Assembly (NCBI GenBank): GCA_030583865.1
Contig: CP129479.1
Location: forward strand, 1,634,819-1,698,818
Length of the DNA: 64,000 nucleotides
Reading direction: 5' to 3'
Source: Thermodesulfobacteriota bacterium
GTDB lineage: Bacteria; Desulfobacterota; GWC2-55-46
The notes under the pieces are model-generated. The model did not search any database. It was given only the letters and a program-made list of their open reading frames with translations, and was not told the origin of the DNA. Every line of letters begins with the position of its first letter. Position 1 is the first letter of the stretch. Below are positions 1 through 53,753 of this stretch, one piece after another. A program made the translations under genes and the position numbers.

Positions 1-1362
1 GGACGGGAAGACGAGGGATTTTATCGCATAGCCCTTGTTAGGCATGAACTCGGCAATAACGGCCGGTGTCGAAACCTTCAGCTCGCTTTCGGAAGACCGG
101 ACCTGCGAGCGCCCTTCAGCGCCCATTGAGGCGCCGTCCACGCGCCCCTCCTCTCCTTCCAGTGCGAGCGCCGGGGACACGGGGTTTCCTCCGTACACCC
201 AGGCAAGGAGCGGGGTCCTGTGCTGGTGGTTTCCGAGGAGCCTTTCCGTCTCCATCTTGAGCCACCCGAGCCTGTTCTGGAACCAGGCGTACTTCTCGTC
301 TATCGTGTTGGTCCTGTAATCGCTCCCCCAGAGGTCGCAGAGCACCTCCTTGAAGTCCTCTATAGGTTCCTTCTCAAGGGCCCCCTGCCTGATGAGGGCC
401 TTCAGGTTATTGTAGACCCTGTGGCATTCGGTATTCACGTGTATGCTGTCCCTGCCCGAGGCGGCCCAGCGGAGCGGGTTGTACTTCTCCTGTTTCTTGC
501 ATACCACCGGGGTCTCGGCCGACTCGAGCCTTATGAGGTTCCCGGCGCCCTTGCTGCCCCTGAGGGATTCGAGCATGCGGCCCGGAGTAGTTAGCCTTAC
601 CCTGGGGTCCTCAGCAGCCTTCCTGAGCAGGCGGGCCATCCTCCCGTGCTCATCCGCTGCCGTCGGCTCGCCACCTGGCCTGTATCCGAAGACCTCGGCG
701 TCGTTACTGTAGGCCGTGAACCCCCTCTCCTCGTCCCCGTCCTTCGGAGCGTGGGAGAAGAGATACTCGAAGTACTCGGCCTCGGGTATCTCGCCGTGCA
801 CGCACCTCTGGAACTTCTGGAAGGCGATGGAATGGCTCCATATGACTTCCACTTCGGTGGAAAGTCCGGCTGCCCTCTGCGGGAGGTACTTGTATTGGAG
901 AGGGTACCTGTTATGCTGGAACGAATTGTTCCAGTCCATGATTATGGCCTCGTACCCGGCTTCCCTGTAAAGGTCCACGATGCCCCTTGAAAAGGTCTGC
1001 TCGTTTACGAGGGCTATTTTCGGCCTCCTGCCGAGGAGGTCGAGATAATATTTGTTCCCCAGCTCCAGGTTCCACCTGTTCACATCCGTCGGCACCAGCG
1101 GGAATATCGACTGCGAATAGCCCGAGCCGATGAACTCGCATCTACCCTCGTCCCAGAGCGAACGGAGCCTCTCGATGAAATACGGGTCTATGGTGTTGAC
1201 CTCCTTGAGAGTCCAGGCCGTCATCTCGACGGCGACAGGTATGCCGCTCTCTGCAAGGCCAAGGAGCGGGGCATAGCACCTCTCGACCACGAGAGGGAAA
1301 TGCTCCCTCGGGATGGAGGAGAAGGCAAGGTTACAGTGGAACATCGTGTACAGGTTAAGCAC
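1..1362 (-). CDS. Glycoside hydrolase family 57-like protein, N-terminal ~450 aa (C-terminus lies beyond the window start)
   Basis: Minus-strand frame open from 1362 to base 1. It is absent from the ORF track because it has no in-window stop. My translation reads (V)LNLYTMFHCNLAFSSIPREHFPLVVERCYAPLLGLAESGIPVAVEMTAWTLKEVN..CEFIGSGYSQSIFPLVP..ALVNEQTFSRGIVDLYREAGYEAIIMDWNN. This has the GH57 N-terminal barrel layout. Start is GTG 1362 (GAGG 8 nt upstream) or ATG 1344. Confidence 0.7.
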   Translation of the reverse strand, partial: MLNLYTMFHCNLAFSSIPREHFPLVVERCYAPLLGLAESGIPVAVEMTAWTLKEVNTIDPYFIERLRSLWDEGRCEFIGSGYSQSIFPLVPTDVNRWNLELGNKYYLDLLGRRPKIALVNEQTFSRGIVDLYREAGYEAIIMDWNNSFQHNRYPLQYKYLPQRAAGLSTEVEVIWSHSIAFQKFQRCVHGEIPEAEYFEYLFSHAPKDGDEERGFTAYSNDAEVFGYRPGGEPTAADEHGRMARLLRKAAEDPRVRLTTPGRMLESLRGSKGAGNLIRLESAETPVVCKKQEKYNPLRWAASGRDSIHVNTECHRVYNNLKALIRQGALEKEPIEDFKEVLCDLWGSDYRTNTIDEKYAWFQNRLGWLKMETERLLGNHQHRTPLLAWVYGGNPVSPALALEGEEGRVDGASMGAEGRSQVRSSESELKVSTPAVIAEFMPNKGYAIKSLVFPS

Positions 1363-25098: not shown

Positions 25099-27150
25099 TT
25101 AGATGGTCCCGGCGGCTTCCAGTCTCTCGCTTGGTGGCAGGAAAACGTCACCATCAAGCGCCTCTCTGCCGCCCGCTGTCCCGGACGAAACCCTGAAATT
25201 CGAGACGAGGTCGCTTAGGTCGCCGGCGAGCCGGGCCATTTCATTGGTCGCCTTGGTAACCTCTTCTATCGCGTACGCGTTGGTCCTTGCGACCTCCGCT
25301 ATCGAGTCCATGTTCCTGGCTATTTCGTCGGCAGTCGAGCTCTGCTCCTCGGCAGACGTGGCTATATGGGCGATGCGGTCAGTGACGTTCTCCACCCCCG
25401 TGACTATCTGCTTGAGGGCGGTCCCGGCGCTGTTCGCGAGCGAAACGCCGTTCTCGACCTTCTTCGAGCCCGCGGACATGGCCGAGACCGCCTTGCCGGT
25501 CTCGCCCTGTATCGCTCCTATCATCCCGCTTATTTCCTTGGTGGCCTTCGTCGTCCTTTCGGCGAGCTTCCTTACCTCGTCAGCGACCACGGCAAAGCCC
25601 CTGCCCTGCTCGCCGGCCCTCGCCGCCTCTATCGCGGCGTTCAGCGCAAGAAGGTTCGTCTGGTCGGCTATGTCGTTTATGACGGAGACTATCGTCCCTA
25701 TCTCCTCCGAGCTCCTGTCGAGGCTTTTTATGGTATCGGAGGTCGCGCTTGTGGCCCGCGCGACCTCCATCATTGCCGAGATTGCGTCGGATACTATGCT
25801 CCCGCCCTCGATAGCTATCTCCTGTGCCGCCTTCGCTGATTCCGAGACCTGCTGGGAATTCCGCGCCACTTCTATGACAGTGGCGTTCATCTCCTCCATC
25901 GCGGTAGCGACCTGTGTAGTCTGCGAGGACTGCCTGCCGGCGCCTTCCGACATCTGGGCCGCCGATACGGAGAGCTCCTCGGATGCCGAGGCCAGGTGGC
26001 TGGAGGTCTCGGCTATCTTGCCGATGAGGGCCGAGATCTGCTCGCCGATCCTGTCGGTGCTCCTGCCGAGCGCCCATATCTCGTCCCTGGCGTCCATTTC
26101 CGTTAAGGCCGCGCCCAGTCCGGTCCTTCTCGTGAGGTCGCCCGCGGCAAAACCCTCGACCGTCCCCGCGATCCTGCCGAGCGGCTCAAGCACGCGCCTG
26201 TTAACCGCCCACATGAGGAAGACCACGCAGGCGACGGAAGCGAGTATCGACGTTGCGACAACGGCCATGCCCTTAAGCGCGCCGTTCCATGCGCCCGGCG
26301 CGGCGCCCCCGGAAAGCCTCTCGCTTGCGTCCGCTACCTTCGGGAGGTGCACGGCCGATATCTCTTTGGCCCTGGATGAAAACTCGTCCTTGCTCTTTAC
26401 GGCCCTGTCGATAAGTTCTTTCCTTTCAGCCCAGAGCGGGTCTATCTGGCCGAATATCCGTTCCAGCTCCCTGCCGGAAGCGGGCTTCATGCCAAGCGGC
26501 GCCGAGCCGTTCCGAATAAGATCGAGCTCTTTATCGAACTCGTCAAGCGTGACGTAAAGCTCTGCTCCAGTGTGCTGCGTGTCGTAGTCGGACCTGGCGT
26601 AGCGCTCGGCGAGGAACGCGAGCCTCGCGTTCTTTTCCATGAGCGAGCCGGCCACCTCGACGTGCCTTGCATATGATGCGTCGCGCAGCAGCGCGCTCCC
26701 CAGCTCCTTAAGCCTCTCGGCGGACGGGCCGGTCCCGTCCTCGATCCCCGCCATCGCCGAGGCCAGCCTCTCGCCGCTCCTCGCGGCATTGTCAAGGGCT
26801 CTGCCCATTGAATGCCATGCGTCGGAAAGGGACGCAATCTCGTCACTTCCTGTCCCGCGGCTTTTCTCTTTAAGCGCGGCGAGGATCTCGCCGAACTCAG
26901 CCTTTTTAGCGTCCAAGAGGCGCTCGATGCCCTCGCCCCCGCTCAAAGTGCGCCTGTTGAGGACCTGTTCCATTTCGACGGCCCTGGCCTTCAGGTCCCC
27001 GGCGATTTCCAGCCGGGCATACTTGCCGCTCAGGCCGTCAACCACGAAGTAGACCACAGGGATCTGAAGAAGGAGCACGAAAAGTATGAAGGCGTAGCTT
27101 CCGAGCAGCCTCGACCTTACGGTCCCGAAGATTTCACGCACACTTCTCAT
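25099..27150 (-). CDS. Methyl-accepting chemotaxis protein (two TM segments, periplasmic helical sensor, HAMP, MA domain)
   Basis: The highly conserved hairpin region [52 protein letters not shown]. Confidence 0.93.
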
Positions 27151-27626
27151 GCAACCGCCGTCAAAGCCTCCTTCTCGTTCCTGGAGAGCACCTTTTCGAC
27201 GTCAAGAAGGATGAGGAGCCTTCCGTCGAGCTTGCCTACCCCTTTGATGTACTCGGACTCGACGCCGGTCACCATCTCCGGGGGCGCCTCGACCCTGTCG
27301 GCCGGAAGCCTCAGGACCTCTGAGACCGCGTCGACCTTGAGCCCCACCGTCTTGTCGTCGACTTCGACGACTATTATCCGTGTTTCATTCGTCATCTCGT
27401 CCGACCCGAGCCCGAACCGTTTCCTGAGGTCAAGTACCGGTATGACCTTGCCCCTGAGGTTTATGACCCCGTCCACGAAATCCGGCGTCTTGGGGACCCT
27501 CGTCAGCTCCATGTGCCGGATTATCTCCTGCACCCGGAGTATGTCGAGAGAGAACTCCTCTTTTCCGAGCCTGAAGGTGACGAGCTGGAGCACCTCCCTT
27601 GCGTCTAGATCCTTTTTCGCTTCCAT
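27147..27626 (-). CDS. cheW: Chemotaxis coupling protein CheW
   Basis: [41 protein letters not shown] prefer ATG 27626 (GGAGG 5 nt upstream) to 27638. ATGA overlap with the MCP start. Confidence 0.92.
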
Positions 27627-27663
27627 TTGAACCTCCATACGTCCGCTTGAGCGCGCACTCTTC

Positions 27664-27691
27664 TATTCGGACGGCGTCCGCGGAAACTTGA
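27664..27691 (-). promoter_or_regulatory. Weak sigma28-like promoter candidate upstream of cheW
   Basis: Minus strand reads TCAAG-N15-TCCGAATA. The spacing matches the flgM promoter, but both boxes are degenerate. Confidence 0.3.
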
Positions 27692-27711
27692 GGCCCCCTG
27701 CGGGGCGCGGT

Positions 27712-28431
27712 TTACATCAGCTGCAGGTCCGGGCTGTGCACCATGATGTCGACCCTCCTGTTTTTCGTCCTGCCGGAGGGCGTGTCGTTCGTGTCTATGG
27801 GCCTGTACTCGCCGAAGCCTATGGCGGATAGCTTCCTCGGGTCGTGGCTGTGGTTGTCGATGAAATACTTGAGTATCCTTATGGACCGGGCGCTGGAGAG
27901 GTCCCAGTTTGAAGGGAATCGCTCGGTGGATATTGGTATGTTGTCGGTATGCCCCTCTATCCTCACGCTGTTGGGCATGTCGACGAGCGCCCTGGCGACC
28001 TCGTCGATTACGGGAAGGCCCTCGTCCAGCAGCTTGTCGCTCCCCGGCTCGAAGAGCATCCCCTCGGAAATCCTGATGGTCACCTTCTGCTCCTCGAATA
28101 TGAGCGTGAGCTTCTGGTTCTCCTGAAGCTCACGGAGGGCGGCCTGGATCTTCTCGTAGTTGTTGGTGTGCATGTCCTTGAACTCGTCCCTGACCTGGGC
28201 GCGCTGCTCCCTTACGAACTTCGGGCCCTCCTGCATGCGGGTCGAGGTGAAAAGCGTCGGGTTGAAGGCTATGGCAAGCGACTCGCTCATTATACGGAAC
28301 TTGCCCTCGTTTACCGAGGAGATGGCGTACATGCTCGTAAAGAACGCGAAGAGGAGCGTTATGAAGTCCGCGTAGGATACGAGCCAGCGCTCGTGGTTCT
28401 CGTGCTCCTCGTGTTTTTTCTTCCTGGCCAT
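27712..28431 (-). CDS. motB: Flagellar stator protein MotB (OmpA-like C-terminus)
   Basis: HERWLVSYADFITLLFAFF plug/TM region and C-terminal NRRVDI peptidoglycan-binding motif. Confidence 0.93.
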   Translation of the reverse strand: MARKKKHEEHENHERWLVSYADFITLLFAFFTSMYAISSVNEGKFRIMSESLAIAFNPTLFTSTRMQEGPKFVREQRAQVRDEFKDMHTNNYEKIQAALRELQENQKLTLIFEEQKVTIRISEGMLFEPGSDKLLDEGLPVIDEVARALVDMPNSVRIEGHTDNIPISTERFPSNWDLSSARSIRILKYFIDNHSHDPRKLSAIGFGEYRPIDTNDTPSGRTKNRRVDIMVHSPDLQLM

Positions 28432-28449
28432 ACTGTCTATTTCCTCTGG

Positions 28450-29205
28450 CTATTTCCTCTGGGACTCCCTCAGGAAGCCGACGAGCTTCTCCTCGACCCT
28501 CCTCGGGTTTTCGCCCTCTGAAAGGGATATGAGCCCCTCCACCGCCATCTCCTGCATTATCACCTGCTCGCGTATCTTCATCTTTATCTTTCCGGCCATA
28601 GGCAGGTAGACGAGGTTGGCGGAGGCGACGCCGTATACCGTGGCGACGAACGCGACCGCTATTCCAGCGCCGAGCTTCGAGGGGTCAGAGAGGTTCTCCA
28701 TTACGTGGATGAGCCCGAGGACCGCGCCTATGATGCCTATGGTCGGGGCGTAGCCGCCCGCCGACTCGTACACCTTGGCTGACGTGAGGTTGTATTCCTC
28801 GGTATGCGCTATGTCTATCTCCAGTATCTCGCGGGTGAGCTTGGGCTCGGCCCCGTCCACCACGAGCTGCAGGCCCTTCCGGAGGAACGGGTCCTGTACC
28901 CTCTTGATGCTCGACTCGAGCGCAAGGAGGCCGTCCTTCCTGGCGGTGGCCGAAAGCTCGGCTATGAGCTTTATGACCGTGTAAGGGTCGCTCGTCTTCT
29001 GGAAAAGCGCGAGCTTCGCGTTCTTGAGCGCCAGGACGAATACGTTAAGCGGGTAATTGACGAGGACCGCGCCGAGGGTCCCGCCGAATACGATGACTGC
29101 CGCAGCCACCTGGGCAATGGACCCGAGGTGCCCGCCTTCGAGCACCATGCCGCCGAGAACGGCCCCGAAGCCGAGTACGAGCCCGAGTATAGTCAATATA
29201 TCCAT
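28450..29205 (-). CDS. motA: Flagellar stator protein MotA
   Basis: 251 aa, 4 TM. MDILTILGLVLGFGAVLGG.., YAPTIGIIGAVLGLI, ATVYGVASANLVYLPMAGK. Confidence 0.93.
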   Translation of the reverse strand: MDILTILGLVLGFGAVLGGMVLEGGHLGSIAQVAAAVIVFGGTLGAVLVNYPLNVFVLALKNAKLALFQKTSDPYTVIKLIAELSATARKDGLLALESSIKRVQDPFLRKGLQLVVDGAEPKLTREILEIDIAHTEEYNLTSAKVYESAGGYAPTIGIIGAVLGLIHVMENLSDPSKLGAGIAVAFVATVYGVASANLVYLPMAGKIKMKIREQVIMQEMAVEGLISLSEGENPRRVEEKLVGFLRESQRK

Positions 29206-29221
29206 TAAGCCGGTACTCCCG

Positions 29222-30274
29222 TCATATCATATTTATTATTTCTGCAGCTATGAGCTCGATCGGAACGACCTTGTCGGCCAGCCCGGCCTCTATGACCGAC
29301 TTCGGCATCCCGTAGACTGTGCAGGTGTGCTCGTCCTGGGCTATGGTCTTTCCGCCCTTCTCCTTTATGAGCCGCATGCCCTCCCTGCCGTCGCTCCCCA
29401 TCCCGGTAAGGATCACGCCGAGCGACCTGCCGGGATAGCTCTCGGCAACGGAAGACATGGATATGTCGATTGAGGGCCTGTACATGGCGTCCCTGGGCTC
29501 GTTGTCGACCTGGAAGAAGAACTCCGTAAGCCCCTTCCTCCTGACCCGCGTCTGAAGGCCGCCTGGAGATACGAACACCTTGCCGAAGCCGACGCTCTCG
29601 CCGTTTTCGGCCTCCTTGACCGGGAGCTTGCAGACCTCGTTCATCCTCTCGGCGAACGCGCCCGTGAACATCCTCGGCATGTGGACCGAGACGAGTATGC
29701 TCGTATCGAGGCCTGCCGGCAGGTTCGCAAGGACGGCCTGGACGGCCCTCGGCCCGCCCGTGGACGCGCCTATTGAAACGAAGGCGACCTTGAGGCTCGC
29801 AAGCCCTCTTTTTACCGCCGGGACCGGGGGCGGCGGGCCGGGTTTCGCGGCCCTGAGCGAGGCGAAATGGTGCTTTTTCCTCGCTATCGCCTTGACCTTT
29901 GTTATGAGCTCGTCCTGTATCTTCATGAGGTCCAGGGCGGAGGTGACGAGGTTTTTGGAGATATAGTCCGCGGCGCCCTTGTCCATCGCCTCGAAGGTCG
30001 CCTTGGCCCCTTCCTTGGTAATCGAGCTCACCATCAGTATGGGGACTGGCATCCTTTCCATGAGCGCCTCTGTCGCCTCGAGGCCGTTCATCTTCGGCAT
30101 CTCGACGTCCATGGTGATAACGTCGGGCTTGAGCTCAAGCGCCATCGAGACGCCCTCGGCCCCGTCCCGCGCGGTCCCGGCGACCTCGATCCCGGGGTCG
30201 GTCTCCAGCATCTGCTTCAAGACGCGCCTCATGAAGGCCGAATCGTCGACTACGAGCACCCTTATCTTGGACAT
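29222..30274 (-). CDS. cheB: Chemotaxis response regulator protein-glutamate methylesterase CheB
   Basis: REC domain (VLVVDDSAFMR..DVEMPKMNG) plus the methylesterase motifs GASTGGPRA and GMGSDG. Confidence 0.95.
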   Translation of the reverse strand: MSKIRVLVVDDSAFMRRVLKQMLETDPGIEVAGTARDGAEGVSMALELKPDVITMDVEMPKMNGLEATEALMERMPVPILMVSSITKEGAKATFEAMDKGAADYISKNLVTSALDLMKIQDELITKVKAIARKKHHFASLRAAKPGPPPPVPAVKRGLASLKVAFVSIGASTGGPRAVQAVLANLPAGLDTSILVSVHMPRMFTGAFAERMNEVCKLPVKEAENGESVGFGKVFVSPGGLQTRVRRKGLTEFFFQVDNEPRDAMYRPSIDISMSSVAESYPGRSLGVILTGMGSDGREGMRLIKEKGGKTIAQDEHTCTVYGMPKSVIEAGLADKVVPIELIAAEIINMI

Positions 30275-30283
30275 TTCACTCCC

Positions 30284-32016
30284 TCAATGGACATAGGCGC
30301 CCTTGGCTGACGTCAGGAGTCCCGCCATGTCGAGTATCAATATTACGTTGCCGTCGCCCGTGATGCATGCCCCGGCGACACCTTCCGTGCCCTTAAGGTA
30401 CTCGCTCATGGACTTCATGACTATCTCTTCCTGGCCGTGGAGCCTGTCTACCAGGACCCCGAAGGACTTCTCGCCTATGCCTATGACAACGATATATTTC
30501 CATTCGGACTTAGACGGAGAGTCCTTGCCGGAGACGAGGGCGCCGAGCCTCACGACCGGGACGACCCTGTCCCTTATGTTTATGGCCTCCCTGCCCTCAA
30601 TCGTCTTTATCTCGTCCGCGGTCACCCGGATGTTCTCTATTACGTTCGAAAGCGGTATGGCGTAGACCTCTCCTCCGGCCTCGACCGTAAGCGCCTGTAT
30701 TATCGCGAGCGTCAGGGGGAGCCTGAACACTATCCTCGTCCCCTTGCCGATTTCCGAATCTATGGATATGGTGCCGTTTATGCGCGATATGTTCGTCTTT
30801 ACCACGTCCATGCCCACGCCGCGCCCGGAGATGCTGCTCACCTCTTTTGCGGTAGAGAAGCCCGGAAGGAAGATCAGTCCCAGCGCGTCGCGCTCGGAGA
30901 GCCTCTCGGCCTCGTCCTCGCTTATTCGGAGAGCCTCTCGGCCTCGTCCTCGCTTATGATGCCCTTCTCGACAGCCGACCTTTTTACCGCCTCGGGGTCT
31001 ATGCCCTTGCCGTCGTCCGAAACCGAGACGATTATGTTCCTCCCCTCCTGGTAGGCAGAAAGGGCGATCGTGCCGGATTGCGGCTTGCCCTTTGCGGCCC
31101 GCTCTTCCGGGAGCTCCATCCCGTGGTCCACGGCGTTCCTTATGAGGTGGACGAGGGGGTCGCCTATCTCTTCGATTACGGTCTTGTCCATCTCGGTCTC
31201 CTCGCCGCTCAGGACAAGCTCCACCTGTTTTCCCGTCTGCCTCGCAAGGTCCCTCACCATCCTCGGGAACTTGTTGAAGACCTTGGCGATGGGCTGCATC
31301 CTTATCTTCATGACGCCGAGCTGGAGGTCGGAGGTCACGAGGTCCAGCTGTGCTATCGCCTCGCTCACCTGGGACTGCAACTCGCCGTCGATGCTGCTTT
31401 CGGACAGCCTCGTCCCGAGCCTCATGAGCCTGTTCCTCGAAAGCACCAGCTCGCCGGCGAGGTTAAGGACGGTATCCAGCCTGTCTATGTCGACCCTTAT
31501 GGCGTGGTCCTTGGCCGATGCTGCGGCGCCCTGGGCCTCGTCGGGCCGCTGCTGTTTCTGCTCCTCGTCCGCCGCGGACTTCTCCGGAATGGTGGGCGCG
31601 CCTGCGTCCTTCCCTGCCGCCTCGCCGTTCAGTATGCCTCCAAGCAGCGCAAGGACCCCGCTCGTGTCCTCTTTTCTCCCGTTCTTTTCGCGTATATTGG
31701 CGAGTATGACCCTGATCATGTCAACCGCGCGCAATATGGCGTCCATCACGGCAGGGGTCACGCTCATCTCGGATTTCCTGAGCTTGTTGAGCACGTCCTC
31801 GGTCACGTGAGTGACCTCGACCATCTGGTCGAAGCCAAGGAAACCTGCCGCGCCCTTGATGGTGTGAATGGACCTGAATATGTCGTTAAGGAGCGGCAGG
31901 TCCCCCGGCTTCTTCTCGAGCTCCACGAATTTCTGGTCGAGGGTCTCCAGCGATTCCGCGGATTCCGCGATGAAATCGTTTATAATGTCGTCCATCTCGT
32001 CCGTGGGGAATGACAC
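30284..32016 (-). pseudogene. cheA: Chemotaxis histidine kinase CheA, frameshifted by a 32-bp tandem duplication
   Basis: Upstream ORF (30922-32016) carries Hpt (HTIKGAAGFLGF), dimerisation, N-box and G1 (DDGKGID), then stops. Downstream ORF (30284-30841, other frame) resumes at G2 (GRGVGMDVV) plus the CheW-like P5 domain. Removing one repeat copy gives one 566-codon ORF reading ..AERLSERDALGLIFLPGFSTAKEVSSISGRGVGMD... Confidence 0.85.
30894..30957. repeat. Perfect 2 x 32-bp tandem duplication inside cheA
   Basis: tcggagagcctctcggcctcgtcctcgcttat at 30894-30925 is repeated exactly at 30926-30957. The flanking bases differ. Confidence 0.95.
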
Positions 32017-32093
32017 GGCTCTTCCTCTCTCTTTAAGAATTCCGTCCAGGCCTTTTCAGGCGCGACAAAAGGCTGAACCGTCTAGATGCGGGG

Positions 32094-32675
32094 CTACGAG
32101 CCTATCTCCTTCAGGAGCCTGTCCACCATGTCCTGGCTCGCAGGCGCCTCCTTCGGCTTCCTGGGCTCGCTCGGCTTCGATGCCGCGCCGCCGTCCTCGA
32201 ACCCGAAGCTCATGGCCACCTCGACTATCTTCTGCTCGACGAACGAGAGCGATTTTATGACTTTCGCGAGCTTCTGGCCGGTCAGGTCCTGGAAGGACAT
32301 GAGGGCGAAGAGCTCGACCATCTCGCCCTTGCTCTTGGCGTTTATCATCTGGAGCTCGCTTATGAGCGACGCGCCCTTCCCGGGGTCGCTCCCCGGCGAA
32401 GCGGCCCACTCCGAGAGCGACTTGAGCGCCGTCCCCGCCTTGTCCTGCTCAGCCATGAGCCCCTCGACTATGTTCATTATCTTGTTTGCGGCGGTCTCGA
32501 GGTCCCCCGTGACCGACGAAAGCTGCGTCGACGCTTCCGGGAACTGCTCGGTTCCCATCTTGACGGTAGTCTCTATGGTGTCTATCCCCTGCCTTGTCTT
32601 GTCAATGAACTTTGCGAGGCCGGTAAGCTCCTCGCGTATCTTGCTCATCACGCCGCTCCATTCCCTCTGTGTCAT
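32094..32675 (-). CDS. cheZ: CheZ-type CheY-P phosphatase
   Basis: Contains the CheZ catalytic motif region LMSFQDLTGQKLAKVI. I prefer ATG 32675 (GGAGGG 5 nt upstream). The track start at 32693 is TTG. Confidence 0.75.
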   Translation of the reverse strand: MTQREWSGVMSKIREELTGLAKFIDKTRQGIDTIETTVKMGTEQFPEASTQLSSVTGDLETAANKIMNIVEGLMAEQDKAGTALKSLSEWAASPGSDPGKGASLISELQMINAKSKGEMVELFALMSFQDLTGQKLAKVIKSLSFVEQKIVEVAMSFGFEDGGAASKPSEPRKPKEAPASQDMVDRLLKEIGS

Positions 32676-32721
32676 CTTTTCCCTCCGTGGCAATTCGTTT
32701 ATGCGCCGACGCGGCGCCTTA

Positions 32722-33111
32722 TTACTGGTTTACCTTCTGCAGGATGAGGTCTATCCTCTCCTTGAGCGCCGCCGCGGTAAAAGGCTTCACTATGTAGTTG
32801 TTCACGCCGGCCTGCACCGCGCTCACGATGTTTTCCTTCGCCGCCTCCGCCGTCACCATCAGGACCGGGGTGTCCTTGAGGGCCCCGTCCGACCTTATCG
32901 CCTTCAAAAGTTCTATCCCTGGCATGTTCGGCATGTTCCAGTCGGTGACGACGAAGTCGAACTTCGACGCCCTGAGCTTCTCGAGCGCGGTAGTCCCGTC
33001 GTCGGCCTCCTCGACGTTGTTGTAGCCTATCTCCCGGAGGATGTTCTTTATTATCCTTCTCATCGTGGAGAAGTCGTCCACTACGAGTATCTTCATGTTC
33101 TGGTCCAGCAT
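32722..33111 (-). CDS. cheY: Chemotaxis response regulator CheY
   Basis: [53 protein letters not shown], the classical CheY. Confidence 0.95.
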
Positions 33112-33151
33112 CTGGCCCCCCTCCTCTTTATATATGGCGAATGGAATCAGT

Positions 33152-33514
33152 TCATATCAGTTTTTCGATCTCGTAAAGAAGCCTTTGCGGCGATATGGGT
33201 TTTGAGAGATAGGTCGTGACGCCCGCCTCCAGGCCCATCCGCCTGTCCGCCTCCCCGGCCTCGGTCGTTATCATTATTATCGGGATCTCCCTGTAGGCGT
33301 CCTGCCCGCGGAGGCTCTTGGAGAGCTCGTATCCGTCCATCTGCGGCATGTTGAGGTCGGTGACTATGAGGTCTATGGGGCTCGTGGCCATCAATTCCAG
33401 CGCCTCTATCCCGTTCGACGCGCTGATTATCTTGTACCCCTTCTCCTTGATGATGTAGGACAGGAGCTTCCTCGTCGTGTCGCAGTCGTCGACCACAAGA
33501 ATTTTCTTCTCCAT
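33152..33514 (-). CDS. Second single-domain CheY-like response regulator
   Basis: 120 aa with [22 protein letters not shown], and SKP. All phospho-acceptor pocket residues are present. Confidence 0.9.
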
Positions 33515-33530
33515 GCTACGGCCCCTTGAA

Positions 33531-34385
33531 TCAGATTTTTTTATAGACTACCGAGCGCTCCACGCTCACCGGCCTGAAAAGCCTGGTTACGCTGTGGAGC
33601 GATTCCGAAAACCCCACCAGCAGGTACCCGCCTTTTTCCATGCTGTCGTAGAGATGACCTATCGCCTTTTTCTTGGACGCGTCGTCGAAGTATATGAGCA
33701 CGTTCCTGCAGAAGACTATGTCCATGCCGCGGACCATCCTCGTCTCGTTGGCGTCTACGAGGTTTATCTTCTTGTAGCGCACGAGCGAGCGGGCCTTGCT
33801 GCTTATGGTGTACGTTTCGCCGTTGCCGGTGAAGTATTTCCTTATATACTCCTCCGGCGTGTTCCGGAGGGAGTACTTGTCGTATACCCCGGCAGCTGCG
33901 GCCCTGAGGACGCCGTCGCTTATGTCGCTTCCGAGTATGTCGACGTTCCAGCCCCTCGCCGGCACCCCCTCCTCGTGGAGCATCATGGAGATGGTGAGCG
34001 GCTCCTCGCCCGTCGAGCACGCGGCGCTCCAGACCCTGATGCTCCTGTTGGAGGCCCTTGACTTCTCCTCGATCACCCTGGAAACCACTCCCTTCCTGAA
34101 AGCCTCCAGCTGGGGGCCGTCCCTGAAAAAGCTCGTCTCGTTCGTGACGACCGAATTGCAGAGGGCCTGGAGCTCGCGCTCCCTCTCCGCGTCGTAGGTG
34201 AGGAAGTAATAGTAGTCCTCGAAGGTCTTCAGGTCCTTCAGCTCAAGCCTCCTCGCGAGCCTCGTCTCCAGGAGATACTTCTTGTTCTCCGGGAAGAAGA
34301 TTCCCGACCGCTTGTAGACGATGTCCCGGAGTAGATAGAAGGTCTCGTCGGACAGCTTGGGCTTATTTATTCCCAGAGTCAGCAT
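33531..34385 (-). CDS. cheR: Chemotaxis protein methyltransferase CheR
   Basis: NETSFFRD, IRVWSAACSTGEEP, and VFCRNVLIYFD. Confidence 0.95.
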   Translation of the reverse strand: MLTLGINKPKLSDETFYLLRDIVYKRSGIFFPENKKYLLETRLARRLELKDLKTFEDYYYFLTYDAERERELQALCNSVVTNETSFFRDGPQLEAFRKGVVSRVIEEKSRASNRSIRVWSAACSTGEEPLTISMMLHEEGVPARGWNVDILGSDISDGVLRAAAAGVYDKYSLRNTPEEYIRKYFTGNGETYTISSKARSLVRYKKINLVDANETRMVRGMDIVFCRNVLIYFDDASKKKAIGHLYDSMEKGGYLLVGFSESLHSVTRLFRPVSVERSVVYKKI

Positions 34386-36304
34386 CTAAGAGTTTCTATG
34401 GCGCTCTCGACCGCCCCCCTGACGCTGGGGTCGGGATGGTTTACGAACTGCTCGAGCGCGCCTATGGCGCCGGTTGCGCCGAGCCTCTCGAGGGCCCTGG
34501 CCGCAGCGGCCTTCACGGGCGCCTCGTCCTTTATGAGCTTTTCTATTATGAGGCCCTCGATATCGTGCTCGCCCAGTTCCCCGAGAAGCAGCACCGAGTG
34601 GTACCTCACCCAGATGTTCCTGTCCTTTAGCGTCCTGAGCAGCGCGGCTTTGATCTTCTCGCCGCACCAGCCGTTGAGGCCTTTCAGGACAGACAGCTTC
34701 ACTTCGTCGCTGTCGTCCGCGAGCCCCTCTATGAGGGCGTCTATCGCGTACGGGAGCCCGAGCCTGGCCATGGACTTGTATGCGGCCTTCCTGACGCCGG
34801 GGCATTTGTCCCGGGCGGCGGCCTTGAGCGCGTCCAGGGCCTTGTCGTCGCCGATGAGCCCCAGGCCCCTTGCCCCCATCTCCCTCATCTGCTCGTTCGG
34901 GTCTTCGAGAAGCGACGTGAAGCCCTTCCTTGCCGAATCCGCGGGGATGAGCGCGAGGCTGTCCGTTATCTCCTCCATTACGTCCCTGTACGACTCTTTC
35001 CGCACCGCGTCGAAAAGCCTTGAGACGGCCGCCGGCCCGGCGAGCGAAGCGAGCGCCCTGGCCGCGATCTTCCGGGTATGCCCGTCCGGCCCCTCGAGGA
35101 AATCATAGAGCACCTCTATGGAGCTGGGCGAACCAATGGCTTCGAGTGCAGCGACCACTTCGCGGAGCTCGTTCTTCCCGACCTTGCTCACGAGTTCCTT
35201 CAGCGCAGGTACCGCGGCCACGGCCTTCATCTCGCCGAGCGCCTTGACCGTCAACTTGAGGCTTTTGCCTCCATTATGGACCTTCTCCTTCAGGGCCGGC
35301 AGGAACCTCCGGCCTGAAACGCTCACTATCGAGTCGACCAGCAGGGCTTCGGTCTCCTCGTCAATGTCGTTCTGGCCCTCTATGTAGCTGAATATGCAGT
35401 CCAGCGACTCGGGCAGCTTGAGGAGCGAAAGCCCCCTTATGGCCTTCAGCTGCCCGGCCCTGTCGGTCTCCTCGCTGAAATTCCTTGTCAGGAAGGCGAA
35501 GTAGGTCTTCCTGAACTCCGGGCCGGGCCTGAAGTCCGACCCTGCCGAGAAGACCTTTTCGAGGAGCTCGACTATCGCCCCGGTGCTGAAGTCCTTACCT
35601 TTCCGCACCATCGGCTCGAGCTTCTGGAGGACTGCGGACGCGTCAACGGCGGAAGCCATCTTCGCGACGGCGTCGATAGCCGCCTCCTTTATGAGCCCCG
35701 AGTCCGTCTCGGTCATCCTCATGAGCGGCTGAAGGGCCCGCCTGTCCTGCATGAGGCCGAGTCCCTCGATTGCGGAAAACTTGACCCATTCCTCGGGGTC
35801 CTCGAGCGCGTTAAGGAGCTCGGGGACCGACTCCTGGTCCCTGAGCTTTCCGAGGCAGACCGCAACCGAGGCCCTGACGTTCGGGTTTTCGTGCCTGATG
35901 AGCGGATAAAGGAGGCTCAGGAACCCGTCGTTCCTGGTATTTGAAATTATGTCGATGGCGAACTTGACAACGTCCTGGTCGCTGTCCTTAAGGAGGGTCG
36001 CGATCGCAGACGAGGCGTCCTGCCCCAGGAGCTCGAGTATCTCTATCCCGATGTTCCTTATGGCCGCGCTCGAATCTCTAAGGAGCGGCACCATTGCGTC
36101 GGCGACCTCCGGGCCCCCGATCGAGGACAGGGCATTAAGGGCAGCTTCCCTCACGCCCGGGTCGGCGTCCCTCAAAGCCTCCGTAAGGGCGGGCACGAAC
36201 TGGCAAAGCCTGCCCTCCTCGATCCTCTCGCAGGCGTCCCTTCTCAGGCAGGGGTCCTGGGAGGCGAGCATTTCCCTCAGGGAATCGATATCGACGTTTT
36301 CCAT
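34379..36304 (-). CDS. ~640-aa HEAT / PBS-lyase-like repeat protein, first gene of the che unit
   Basis: More than 15 reiterations of the (D/E)xxVRxxAaxALgxiG helical repeat. Overlaps the cheR start by 7 nt. I prefer ATG 36304 (AAGGGG SD). The track start is GTG 36310. Confidence 0.8.
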   Translation of the reverse strand: MENVDIDSLREMLASQDPCLRRDACERIEEGRLCQFVPALTEALRDADPGVREAALNALSSIGGPEVADAMVPLLRDSSAAIRNIGIEILELLGQDASSAIATLLKDSDQDVVKFAIDIISNTRNDGFLSLLYPLIRHENPNVRASVAVCLGKLRDQESVPELLNALEDPEEWVKFSAIEGLGLMQDRRALQPLMRMTETDSGLIKEAAIDAVAKMASAVDASAVLQKLEPMVRKGKDFSTGAIVELLEKVFSAGSDFRPGPEFRKTYFAFLTRNFSEETDRAGQLKAIRGLSLLKLPESLDCIFSYIEGQNDIDEETEALLVDSIVSVSGRRFLPALKEKVHNGGKSLKLTVKALGEMKAVAAVPALKELVSKVGKNELREVVAALEAIGSPSSIEVLYDFLEGPDGHTRKIAARALASLAGPAAVSRLFDAVRKESYRDVMEEITDSLALIPADSARKGFTSLLEDPNEQMREMGARGLGLIGDDKALDALKAAARDKCPGVRKAAYKSMARLGLPYAIDALIEGLADDSDEVKLSVLKGLNGWCGEKIKAALLRTLKDRNIWVRYHSVLLLGELGEHDIEGLIIEKLIKDEAPVKAAAARALERLGATGAIGALEQFVNHPDPSVRGAVESAIETLRC

Positions 36305-36319
36305 AACCACCCCTTCATG

Positions 36320-52427: not shown

Positions 52428-53753
52428 CTAAGCCGGGAGGGCGAACAGCGCCTGCAGGCTGTTGTCATAGCCCACCCCTTCAGATATGTCCTGCCTGAGG
52501 AAAGCGTTCACCTTGTCTATGACCTCTATTGCATGGTCCACGGCAGGGTCGCTCCCTTTTTTGTACGCGCCTATGCTTATGAGGTCGTACGCCTTTTTGT
52601 AGGTCGAGAGCACTGAGCGCAGCCGCGTGGCCGCCTTCCTGTGCTCGGGGTTCACGATGTCGTTCATTACCCTGCTTATGCTCGAAAGTACGTCTATCGC
52701 GGGGTAATGCGCCTGGTGGGCGAGTTCCCTCGAAAGGACTATGTGGCCGTCGAGCACCGCCCTCGCGGCGTCGGCGACAGGATCGTTCACGTCGTCTCCT
52801 TCGGCGAGTATAGTGTAAAAACCAGTTATGCTCCCCTTCCCCTCGGAGGTGCCGGCCCGCTCAAGGAGCCTCGGCAAATGCGCAAAAACCGAGGGCGGAT
52901 AGCCTTTTGTGGCGGGCGGCTCGCCAATGGCAAGTCCTATCTCCCTCTGGGCCATGCAGAACCGCGATATCGAGTCCATCATGAGGAGGACGTTCTTGCC
53001 CTGGTCCCTGAAATACTCGGCTATGGCAGTCGCCACCATCGGCGCCCTCATCCGGAGGAGAGGCGGCTGGTCGGAGGTCGCGACCACCAGCACGGACCTT
53101 TTAAGGCCCTCCTCGCCGAGGTCCTTCTCTATGAACTCCTTTACCTCCCTGCCCCTCTCGCCTATGAGGCCGATGACGTTCACGTCGGCCTCGGTATTCC
53201 GGGCCATCATGCCCATGAGTACGCTTTTTCCAACGCCGCTTCCGGCGAAGATGCCTATCCTCTGCCCCTTGCCCACGGTAAGGACGCTGTTTATCGCCCT
53301 TATGCCGACGTTGAGCGGCTCCTCTATCCTCTTTCTCGAAAGCGGGTTCGGAGGGGTCGAATAAAGAGGGTATTCGGTTTCGGCCTCGAAGGAGCCGAGC
53401 CCGTCAAGGGGGGAGCCGAGCCCGTCAAGGGTCCTCCCGAGAAGCCCCGGCCCGACCTTGACCGATGCGCTCACCCTTTTCGATACTATCTTGCTGCCCG
53501 GCCCGATGCCCCTTACTTCCCCGAGGGGCATGAGGAGTATCTTGTCATCCGAAAAACCGACGACCTCGCACTGGATGGGCTCGTGCCCGTCCTTCGGGTA
53601 CACGTGGCAGAACTCGCCGACCGAAGACCCGGGACCGAGCCCTTCCATCACGAGTCCGACTACCCTCGTGACCCTGCCGTGCACCCTCACGGGGTTTATC
53701 TCCCCGACGGCATTCCTCTGCCTTCGGAGATATTCAATCGCGCGCGTATGCAT
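52428..53753 (-). CDS. fliI: Flagellum-specific ATPase FliI
   Basis: Walker A GIFAGSGVGKSVLMGMM, Walker B VLLMMDSISRF, and ITGFYTILAEGDD. Confidence 0.97.
   Translation of the reverse strand: MHTRAIEYLRRQRNAVGEINPVRVHGRVTRVVGLVMEGLGPGSSVGEFCHVYPKDGHEPIQCEVVGFSDDKILLMPLGEVRGIGPGSKIVSKRVSASVKVGPGLLGRTLDGLGSPLDGLGSFEAETEYPLYSTPPNPLSRKRIEEPLNVGIRAINSVLTVGKGQRIGIFAGSGVGKSVLMGMMARNTEADVNVIGLIGERGREVKEFIEKDLGEEGLKRSVLVVATSDQPPLLRMRAPMVATAIAEYFRDQGKNVLLMMDSISRFCMAQREIGLAIGEPPATKGYPPSVFAHLPRLLERAGTSEGKGSITGFYTILAEGDDVNDPVADAARAVLDGHIVLSRELAHQAHYPAIDVLSSISRVMNDIVNPEHRKAATRLRSVLSTYKKAYDLISIGAYKKGSDPAVDHAIEVIDKVNAFLRQDISEGVGYDNSLQALFALPA

Follow-up and report, generated by a model that had tools for sequence, protein, structure and literature searches.

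Switching by homopolymer frameshift is known from the C-tract of Bordetella pertussis bvgS, from Campylobacter jejuni flgR and flgS and from Helicobacter pylori fliP. Naturally split CheA systems exist as well, for example CheA3/CheA4 of Rhodobacter sphaeroides. In Streptococcus pneumoniae, cap3A is turned on and off by tandem duplications (Waite et al. 2001, as cited in PMC11163986), and those in Ralstonia solanacearum phcA give variants that revert (Poussier et al. 2003, as cited in bioRxiv 10.1101/2023.04.27.538605); the same preprint describes a reverting G6/G7 tract in Xanthomonas wxoA. As summarised in these sources, cap3A and phcA share two features with the locus described here, namely a duplication at a site without a pre-existing repeat and a frameshift that turns the gene off, and loss of one copy would restore the gene. 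They differ in that switching is known for both of them, whereas here there is a single duplication allele and switching is a candidate.

We describe a cheA gene that is interrupted by a perfect 32-bp tandem duplication in a 64-kb stretch of DNA (hereafter, the window). Short tandem-duplication frameshifts are a well-known class of mutation, of which this event is a member. It shares with ordinary members of this class identical head-to-tail copies, a length that is not a multiple of 3 and an immediate stop, as well as a one-copy ancestor in clonal relatives and the sister species and zero divergence between the copies. Unlike slippage-type duplications, it has no flanking microhomology, and it is found in an uncultured lineage represented by metagenome data alone.

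The 32-bp duplication in cheA

The 32-mer TCGGAGAGCCTCTCGGCCTCGTCCTCGCTTAT occurs twice, back to back, at 30894–30957 (Table 1), and the two copies are 100% identical, exactly as the preliminary description of this DNA had placed them. With a TRF score of 128 it is the top tandem repeat of the 64-kb window, and the 32-mer has no further occurrence in the window on either strand. By chance alone, 64 kb would be expected to contain ~64000 x 4^-32, or ~3e-15, perfect tandem repeats of 32 nt. The array comprises exactly 2.0 copies and the match stops at its borders (0 nt of extension on both sides), so that microhomology of the slippage type, which is not obligatory for the class, is absent.

Replication slippage less often leaves borders without microhomology (0 nt). 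The DNA at and near the site has no unusual folding on either strand (z ~0.6), which lends no support to a structural cause. Taken together, the lack of microhomology and the unremarkable folding indicate no specific mutational mechanism. An Rfam search of the window found no RNA families.

The insertion of 32 nt (3n+2) shifts the reading frame at codon 364 and leads to a stop one codon later. The resulting 5′ ORF of 364 amino acids ends in ..GIISEDEAERLSE immediately before the TAA, which bears out the frameshift and stop reported earlier, and its residues 1–364 are 100% identical to CheA as restored in silico (see below). In the other frame, a GTG at 30841 is the sole candidate start for the 3′ ORF, which encodes 185 amino acids (..SSISGRGVGMDVVKT). 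On the coding strand, the junction between the copies reads GGCTCTCCGA / ATAAGCGAGG, also written CTCTCCGA / ATAAGCGA (slashes mark the borders). The signature of a one-copy allele is CTCTCCGA / GCGCGACG, with GGCATC / ATAAGCG before it.

Table 1. Coordinates of cheA, its interruption and the surrounding operon in the window
Feature	Position	Strand	Remarks
Chemotaxis and motor operon	25099..34385	-	all genes other than cheA intact, full length (Pfam scan)
cheR	33531–34385	-	intact
cheR codon 28	34304	-	GGA (Gly) in window, SRR24881069 and L086
cheY	33152–33514	-	intact
Second cheY	32722–33111	-	intact
cheZ	32094–32675	-	intact; followed by cheA
5′ cheA fragment	30922..32016	-	364 aa; P1 (Hpt), P3 (dimerisation), N-terminal P4 through G1 box
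First-transcribed 32-mer copy	30926..30957	-	coding strand ATAAGCGAGGACGAGGCCGAGAGGCTCTCCGA; codons 354–364, ISEDEAERLSE
Second, identical 32-mer copy	30894..30925	-	frame shift +2
Premature TAA stop	30922..30924	-	last base of first-transcribed copy (30926) and first bases of second copy
3′ cheA remainder, original frame	30284..30925	-	F box, G2 box, rest of P4, P5 (CheW-like)
cheA C5 tract	30715..30719	-	codons ~422–424; C5 in window
cheB	29222–30274	-	intact
motA	28450–29205	-	intact
motB	27712–28431	-	intact
cheW	27147–27626	-	intact
MCP	25099–27150	-	intact

The restored CheA and the position of the break

In-silico removal of one copy gives an ORF of 566 codons that reads ..AERLSERDALGLIFLPGFSTAKEVSSISGRGVGMDVV.. 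across the site. This restoration had been proposed before, and the ORF proves to have the full CheA architecture: the four Pfam domains Hpt, H-kinase_dim, HATPase_c and CheW are all found above cut-offs, and the alignment with P3–P5 of Thermotoga maritima CheA (PDB 1b3q / 3ja6) is gap-free across the site (E ~1e-108). Like this canonical class II CheA, the restored protein has P1, P3, P4 and P5, and its gene lies in a cheY-cheZ-cheA-cheB-motAB-cheW-MCP operon. It differs from the canonical class in that a P2 domain is undetected in the restored ORF and in that the gene of the window is interrupted inside P4. The domain set of a one-polypeptide CheA (P1, P3, P4 and P5) is thus complete in the one-copy ORF and split over two ORFs in the window.

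The break separates the conserved boxes of the ATP-binding fold. The 364-residue fragment carries the G1 box (DDGKGID), and the other frame encodes the F box (FLPGFST) and the G2 box (GRGVGMD). Since the window has no contiguous P4 with all three boxes, cheA should be annotated as a disrupted allele; judged from its sequence, the gene is a CheA by descent and not an intact one. The break had been described as lying between the G1 and G2 boxes and cutting the ATP lid. Its position, between G1 and F, agrees with the first part of this statement, but the lid proper lies ~10 residues downstream and is not itself cut. A tblastn search found no other cheA-like gene within the 64-kb window, to which extent the claim that this is the only cheA stands. 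Another cheA elsewhere in the genome could compensate for the loss.

The position of the break also bears on the idea that both ORFs are translated and reassemble as an active CheA. Both fragments are still ORFs and would be co-transcribed, and CheA3/CheA4 of R. sphaeroides provide a precedent for a natural split. Against this, the cut, between the G1 and F boxes, interrupts the P4 fold instead of respecting a domain boundary, and the 3′ fragment has a GTG start only. Furthermore, close and distant homologues are all single polypeptides of ~560–620 residues, and this particular split is missing from every other sample of the strain. We agree with the preliminary description that a natural split kinase is implausible, and consider a functional one scarcely credible.

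One-copy alleles in the same strain and in relatives

Searched against proteins, the restored CheA has complete homologues of 566 residues at 97% and 90% identity. A further product of 462 residues (P0037) is 100% identical over residues 1–424 and hence spans the site with one copy. A genome-contig search with the same query was saturated by generic CheA motifs and returned only relatives with identities of up to 56%.

We then compared the window with Logan contigs, which are k=31 de Bruijn assemblies made straight from public sequencing runs and which we located by exact-product look-ups. Unbroken contigs with one copy are present in five runs (SRR24130422, ERR3169470, SRR29109023, SRR30831075 and SRR22383266). 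These runs are of the same strain, with flanks 100% identical to the window. Two relatives also have one copy, L105 (SRR5266476, 98% nucleotide identity) and L086 (GCA_048500075.1, 94%); in both of them, cheA is intact with 566 residues and the gene order is unchanged.

One copy in five same-strain runs and in two relatives indicates that the duplication is derived, and the zero divergence between the adjacent copies, together with the intact neighbouring genes, indicates that it is recent. On this comparison of sequences we take it to be derived, recent and specific to one sample, with one copy as the ancestral state. The same three observations (identical copies, one-copy alleles elsewhere, intact neighbours) support the very recent knockout that was among the explanations first put forward. 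The exact-product look-up has the 364-residue fragment of the window on record nowhere else. Among JGI metagenome contigs there is no match to the junction between the copies, and none to the conserved flank either, so that this collection lacks the strain altogether.

Break points in the k=31 assembly of SRR24881069

Since k=31 is smaller than the 32-bp period, reads that carry the duplication cannot yield an unbroken Logan contig. We simulated the k=31 de Bruijn graph for both alleles. Two-copy or mixed reads give a unitig that ends at 30928 and another that starts at 30923, whereas one-copy reads give a single unbroken unitig. In the simulated graph, the k-mers of the junction form a loop, so that one unitig stops with base 30 of the first copy and the next begins with base 3 of the second.

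Run SRR24881069 has exactly these break points. Its contig L106 extends from 32952 to 30928 of the window and its last 31-mer is C+U[1..30] (U being one copy), base 30 of the first-transcribed copy. Contig L117, identical to the window (100%) from 30923 to 25655, opens with the 31-mer U[3..32]+G, starting at base 3 of the second copy. The existence of L117 had been predicted beforehand from the product that a contig truncated at this edge would encode (SEDEAERLSERDALG.., 212 residues, window 30922 to 30284); a single contig of the entire collection, L117, matched in the look-up of this product, and it is likewise from SRR24881069. At this contig size, two ends would coincide with the two predicted nucleotides by chance in ~1 in 10^6 cases.

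The ends of L106 and L117 on the predicted nucleotides imply that the raw reads of SRR24881069 contain k-mers of the copy–copy junction, and that these were abundant enough to survive Logan error pruning. The evidence for junction-carrying reads is in this case indirect and is provided by contig break points. The window also matches SRR24881069 at the other polymorphic sites (G at cheR 34304; C5 in cheA), and its genome probably comes from that sample or a sibling. If the reads of SRR24881069 also underlie the window, the two assemblies differ in software but share their data.

These break points largely refute an assembly artefact, which had been offered as one of three explanations. An artefact of assembly, finishing or library preparation might consist of an untrimmed 32-nt overlap between contigs (e.g., k-1 of k=33) or of a polishing or chimeric-read error, with cheA being intact in the organism. 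The array has features that one would expect from such an error: exactly 2.0 copies, no microhomology and a length that adjoins a common k-mer size. In addition, the duplication is seen in none of the five other runs of the strain (0/5), and neither the look-up of the 364-residue fragment nor the search of JGI contigs for the junction found it elsewhere. However, an artefact of this kind does not account for a read-derived assembly that breaks exactly at 30928 and 30923, since breaks there arise only if reads contain junction k-mers, and pure de Bruijn contigs cannot hold k-mers that are missing from reads. The duplication is not confined to the assembled contig, as a joining error would be, since the predicted branch points appear in the read-derived graph. 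The site is no natural k=31 break point in the five other runs, and there is thus no reason for contigs to have been joined there. Finally, the window has no other indel relative to read-derived contigs over 46.4 kb. We conclude that a contig-joining artefact is very unlikely to be behind the duplication. A library artefact confined to SRR24881069 is conceivable, and we regard artefacts of all these kinds, taken together, as quite remote.

The same reasoning from the break points of a separate k=31 assembly can confirm or refute other short tandem duplications without access to reads, for example in the triage of frameshifts in metagenome-assembled genomes.

Variation in chemotaxis genes of the near-clonal strain

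The coverage of the window by Logan contigs amounts to 46,409 nt within 12907–61531, in 36 contigs (L001–L005, L089–L104 and L106–L120) and at least 15 runs. Besides SRR24881069, the runs are SRR24130421/22, ERR3169469-74, SRR29109021/23, SRR30831073/75, SRR31916084, SRR22383266/67, DRR779145 and DRR859392/401. Only five sites vary over these 46.4 kb: the 32-bp duplication, a change from C5 to C6 in cheA, CheR G28R and two synonymous single-nucleotide polymorphisms, one in flhF and the other in a flgJ-like gene.

The C6 allele is present in SRR24130422, SRR30831075 and SRR22383266 and shifts the frame at about codon 423. C5 is present in the window, ERR3169470, SRR29109023, SRR24881069 and both relatives. 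In the C6 allele the P5 domain is split off, leaving the product of 462 residues (P0037) and an ORF of 113 residues. C6 is a second cheA frameshift, independent of the duplication. Like the homopolymer switches mentioned above, it is a +1 slip in a short homopolymer of a histidine-kinase gene (three runs), but the tract of cheA has only 5 nt and is conserved in relatives, and the C6 allele is not the one in the window.

Codon 28 of cheR is AGA (Arg) in SRR24130422 and ERR3169470, which changes the N-terminal domain of CheR. G28R is derived, since the sister species has Gly, and it is the sole protein change in 46 kb that is not a frameshift.

All protein-altering differences (3/3) are in che genes, and flagellar and motor genes show no damage over the covered span. 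Given the first, both of the remaining protein-altering changes would fall by chance in sequence for che signalling proteins (~16% of what is covered) with a probability of ~0.03, a figure subject to ascertainment, as the locus was picked for its duplication and cheA is covered 5.5x compared with an average of 3.0x. At least three independent derived changes in a near-clonal lineage suggest that loss of chemotaxis signalling is tolerated or favoured in the habitat. Five differences in 46 kb, with the protein-altering ones all in che genes, give a hint, open to testing, of either switching or parallel selection against chemotaxis.

Loss of function and the possibility of reversion

We consider it probable that the duplication is a genuine, recent loss-of-function mutation in cheA, likely to be under relaxed or positive selection. 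It would be a spontaneous mutation that is present at appreciable frequency in the population of one sample, SRR24881069. The 5′ product would comprise P1, P3 and the N-terminal half of the kinase domain, as far as the G1 box. What remains of P4, including the F and G2 boxes (ATP lid), would be stranded on the fragment with the GTG start, together with P5, which couples the kinase to receptors and CheW. From what is known of CheA, neither fragment should be able to bind ATP and phosphorylate P1, and P5 would be uncoupled from the kinase. With P4 split and both the lid and P5 on the other fragment, the kinase is expected to be inactive, and phosphorylation of CheY and CheB from this cluster would consequently be lost. 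Since the flagellar and motor genes are intact, the cells would be motile but non-chemotactic, having lost run bias. What the sequences and contigs show is the duplication with its frameshift, the support from reads, the one-copy alleles of other samples and the second frameshift allele; the inactive kinase, the phenotype and selection are inferred. In annotation, this ordinary knockout is best treated as a pseudogene allele of cheA rather than as two genes.

Loss of one copy would undo a perfect tandem duplication exactly. The duplication and the C5/C6 tract might toggle cheA between off and on through slipped-strand gain and precise loss, giving mixed populations. The k=31 graph of SRR24881069 fits a mixture of one- and two-copy alleles as well as it fits pure two-copy reads, and thus speaks neither for nor against such a mixed population, the third of the explanations first put forward. 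There are two different slippage-type frameshifts in one gene of one clone. As the other chemotaxis and flagellar genes are undamaged, full function would be expected of a revertant to the on state. There are also the precedents of cap3A, as given in PMC11163986, and of phcA and wxoA, as given in bioRxiv 10.1101/2023.04.27.538605.

On the other hand, the on allele has neither a pre-existing repeat at the site nor microhomology, which argues that the off event is not programmed or site-specific. Away from the site, the only tract involved is C5, which falls short of the usual length of phase-variable tracts and is shared by relatives. The duplication is found in one run only, and the missense change CheR G28R found elsewhere in the strain is of a non-reversible type and fits plain loss better. 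We therefore regard a reversible switch as unlikely. The broader proposal that cheA is a natural contingency gene, by which chemotaxis is repeatedly turned off and potentially back on as a hedge that keeps some cells motile and non-chemotactic, seems improbable to us. In descending order of probability, we rank loss of function before a reversible switch, an artefact and a functional split kinase.

The operon and its neighbourhood

The intactness of the other che genes, which had been noted earlier, is confirmed by the Pfam scan (Table 1), and the genes of the operon have the same lengths as in the relative GCA_048500075.1.

The fliI gene contains a near-perfect, in-frame 21-bp tandem repeat at 53391–53431 (minus strand), which encodes LDGLGSP-LDGLGS in the N-terminal region of FliI. 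Logan contigs span the repeat in five runs and agree on its sequence in all of them (5/5), with the natural motif LDGLGSPLDGLGS, and so give no sign of error-prone assembly. The repeat is a fixed natural feature, neither a recent duplication nor an assembly error.

Logan contigs from all runs have common end points at 25613–25654 and 32932–32952. The former corresponds to the highly conserved tip of the MCP signalling hairpin, which is presumably common to paralogues at k=31; the latter is inside the second cheY. A gene on the minus strand at 34379–36319, between fliA and cheR, overlaps the start of cheR. It encodes a protein of 641–646 residues that consists almost wholly of HEAT repeats, and it is kept in the sister species.
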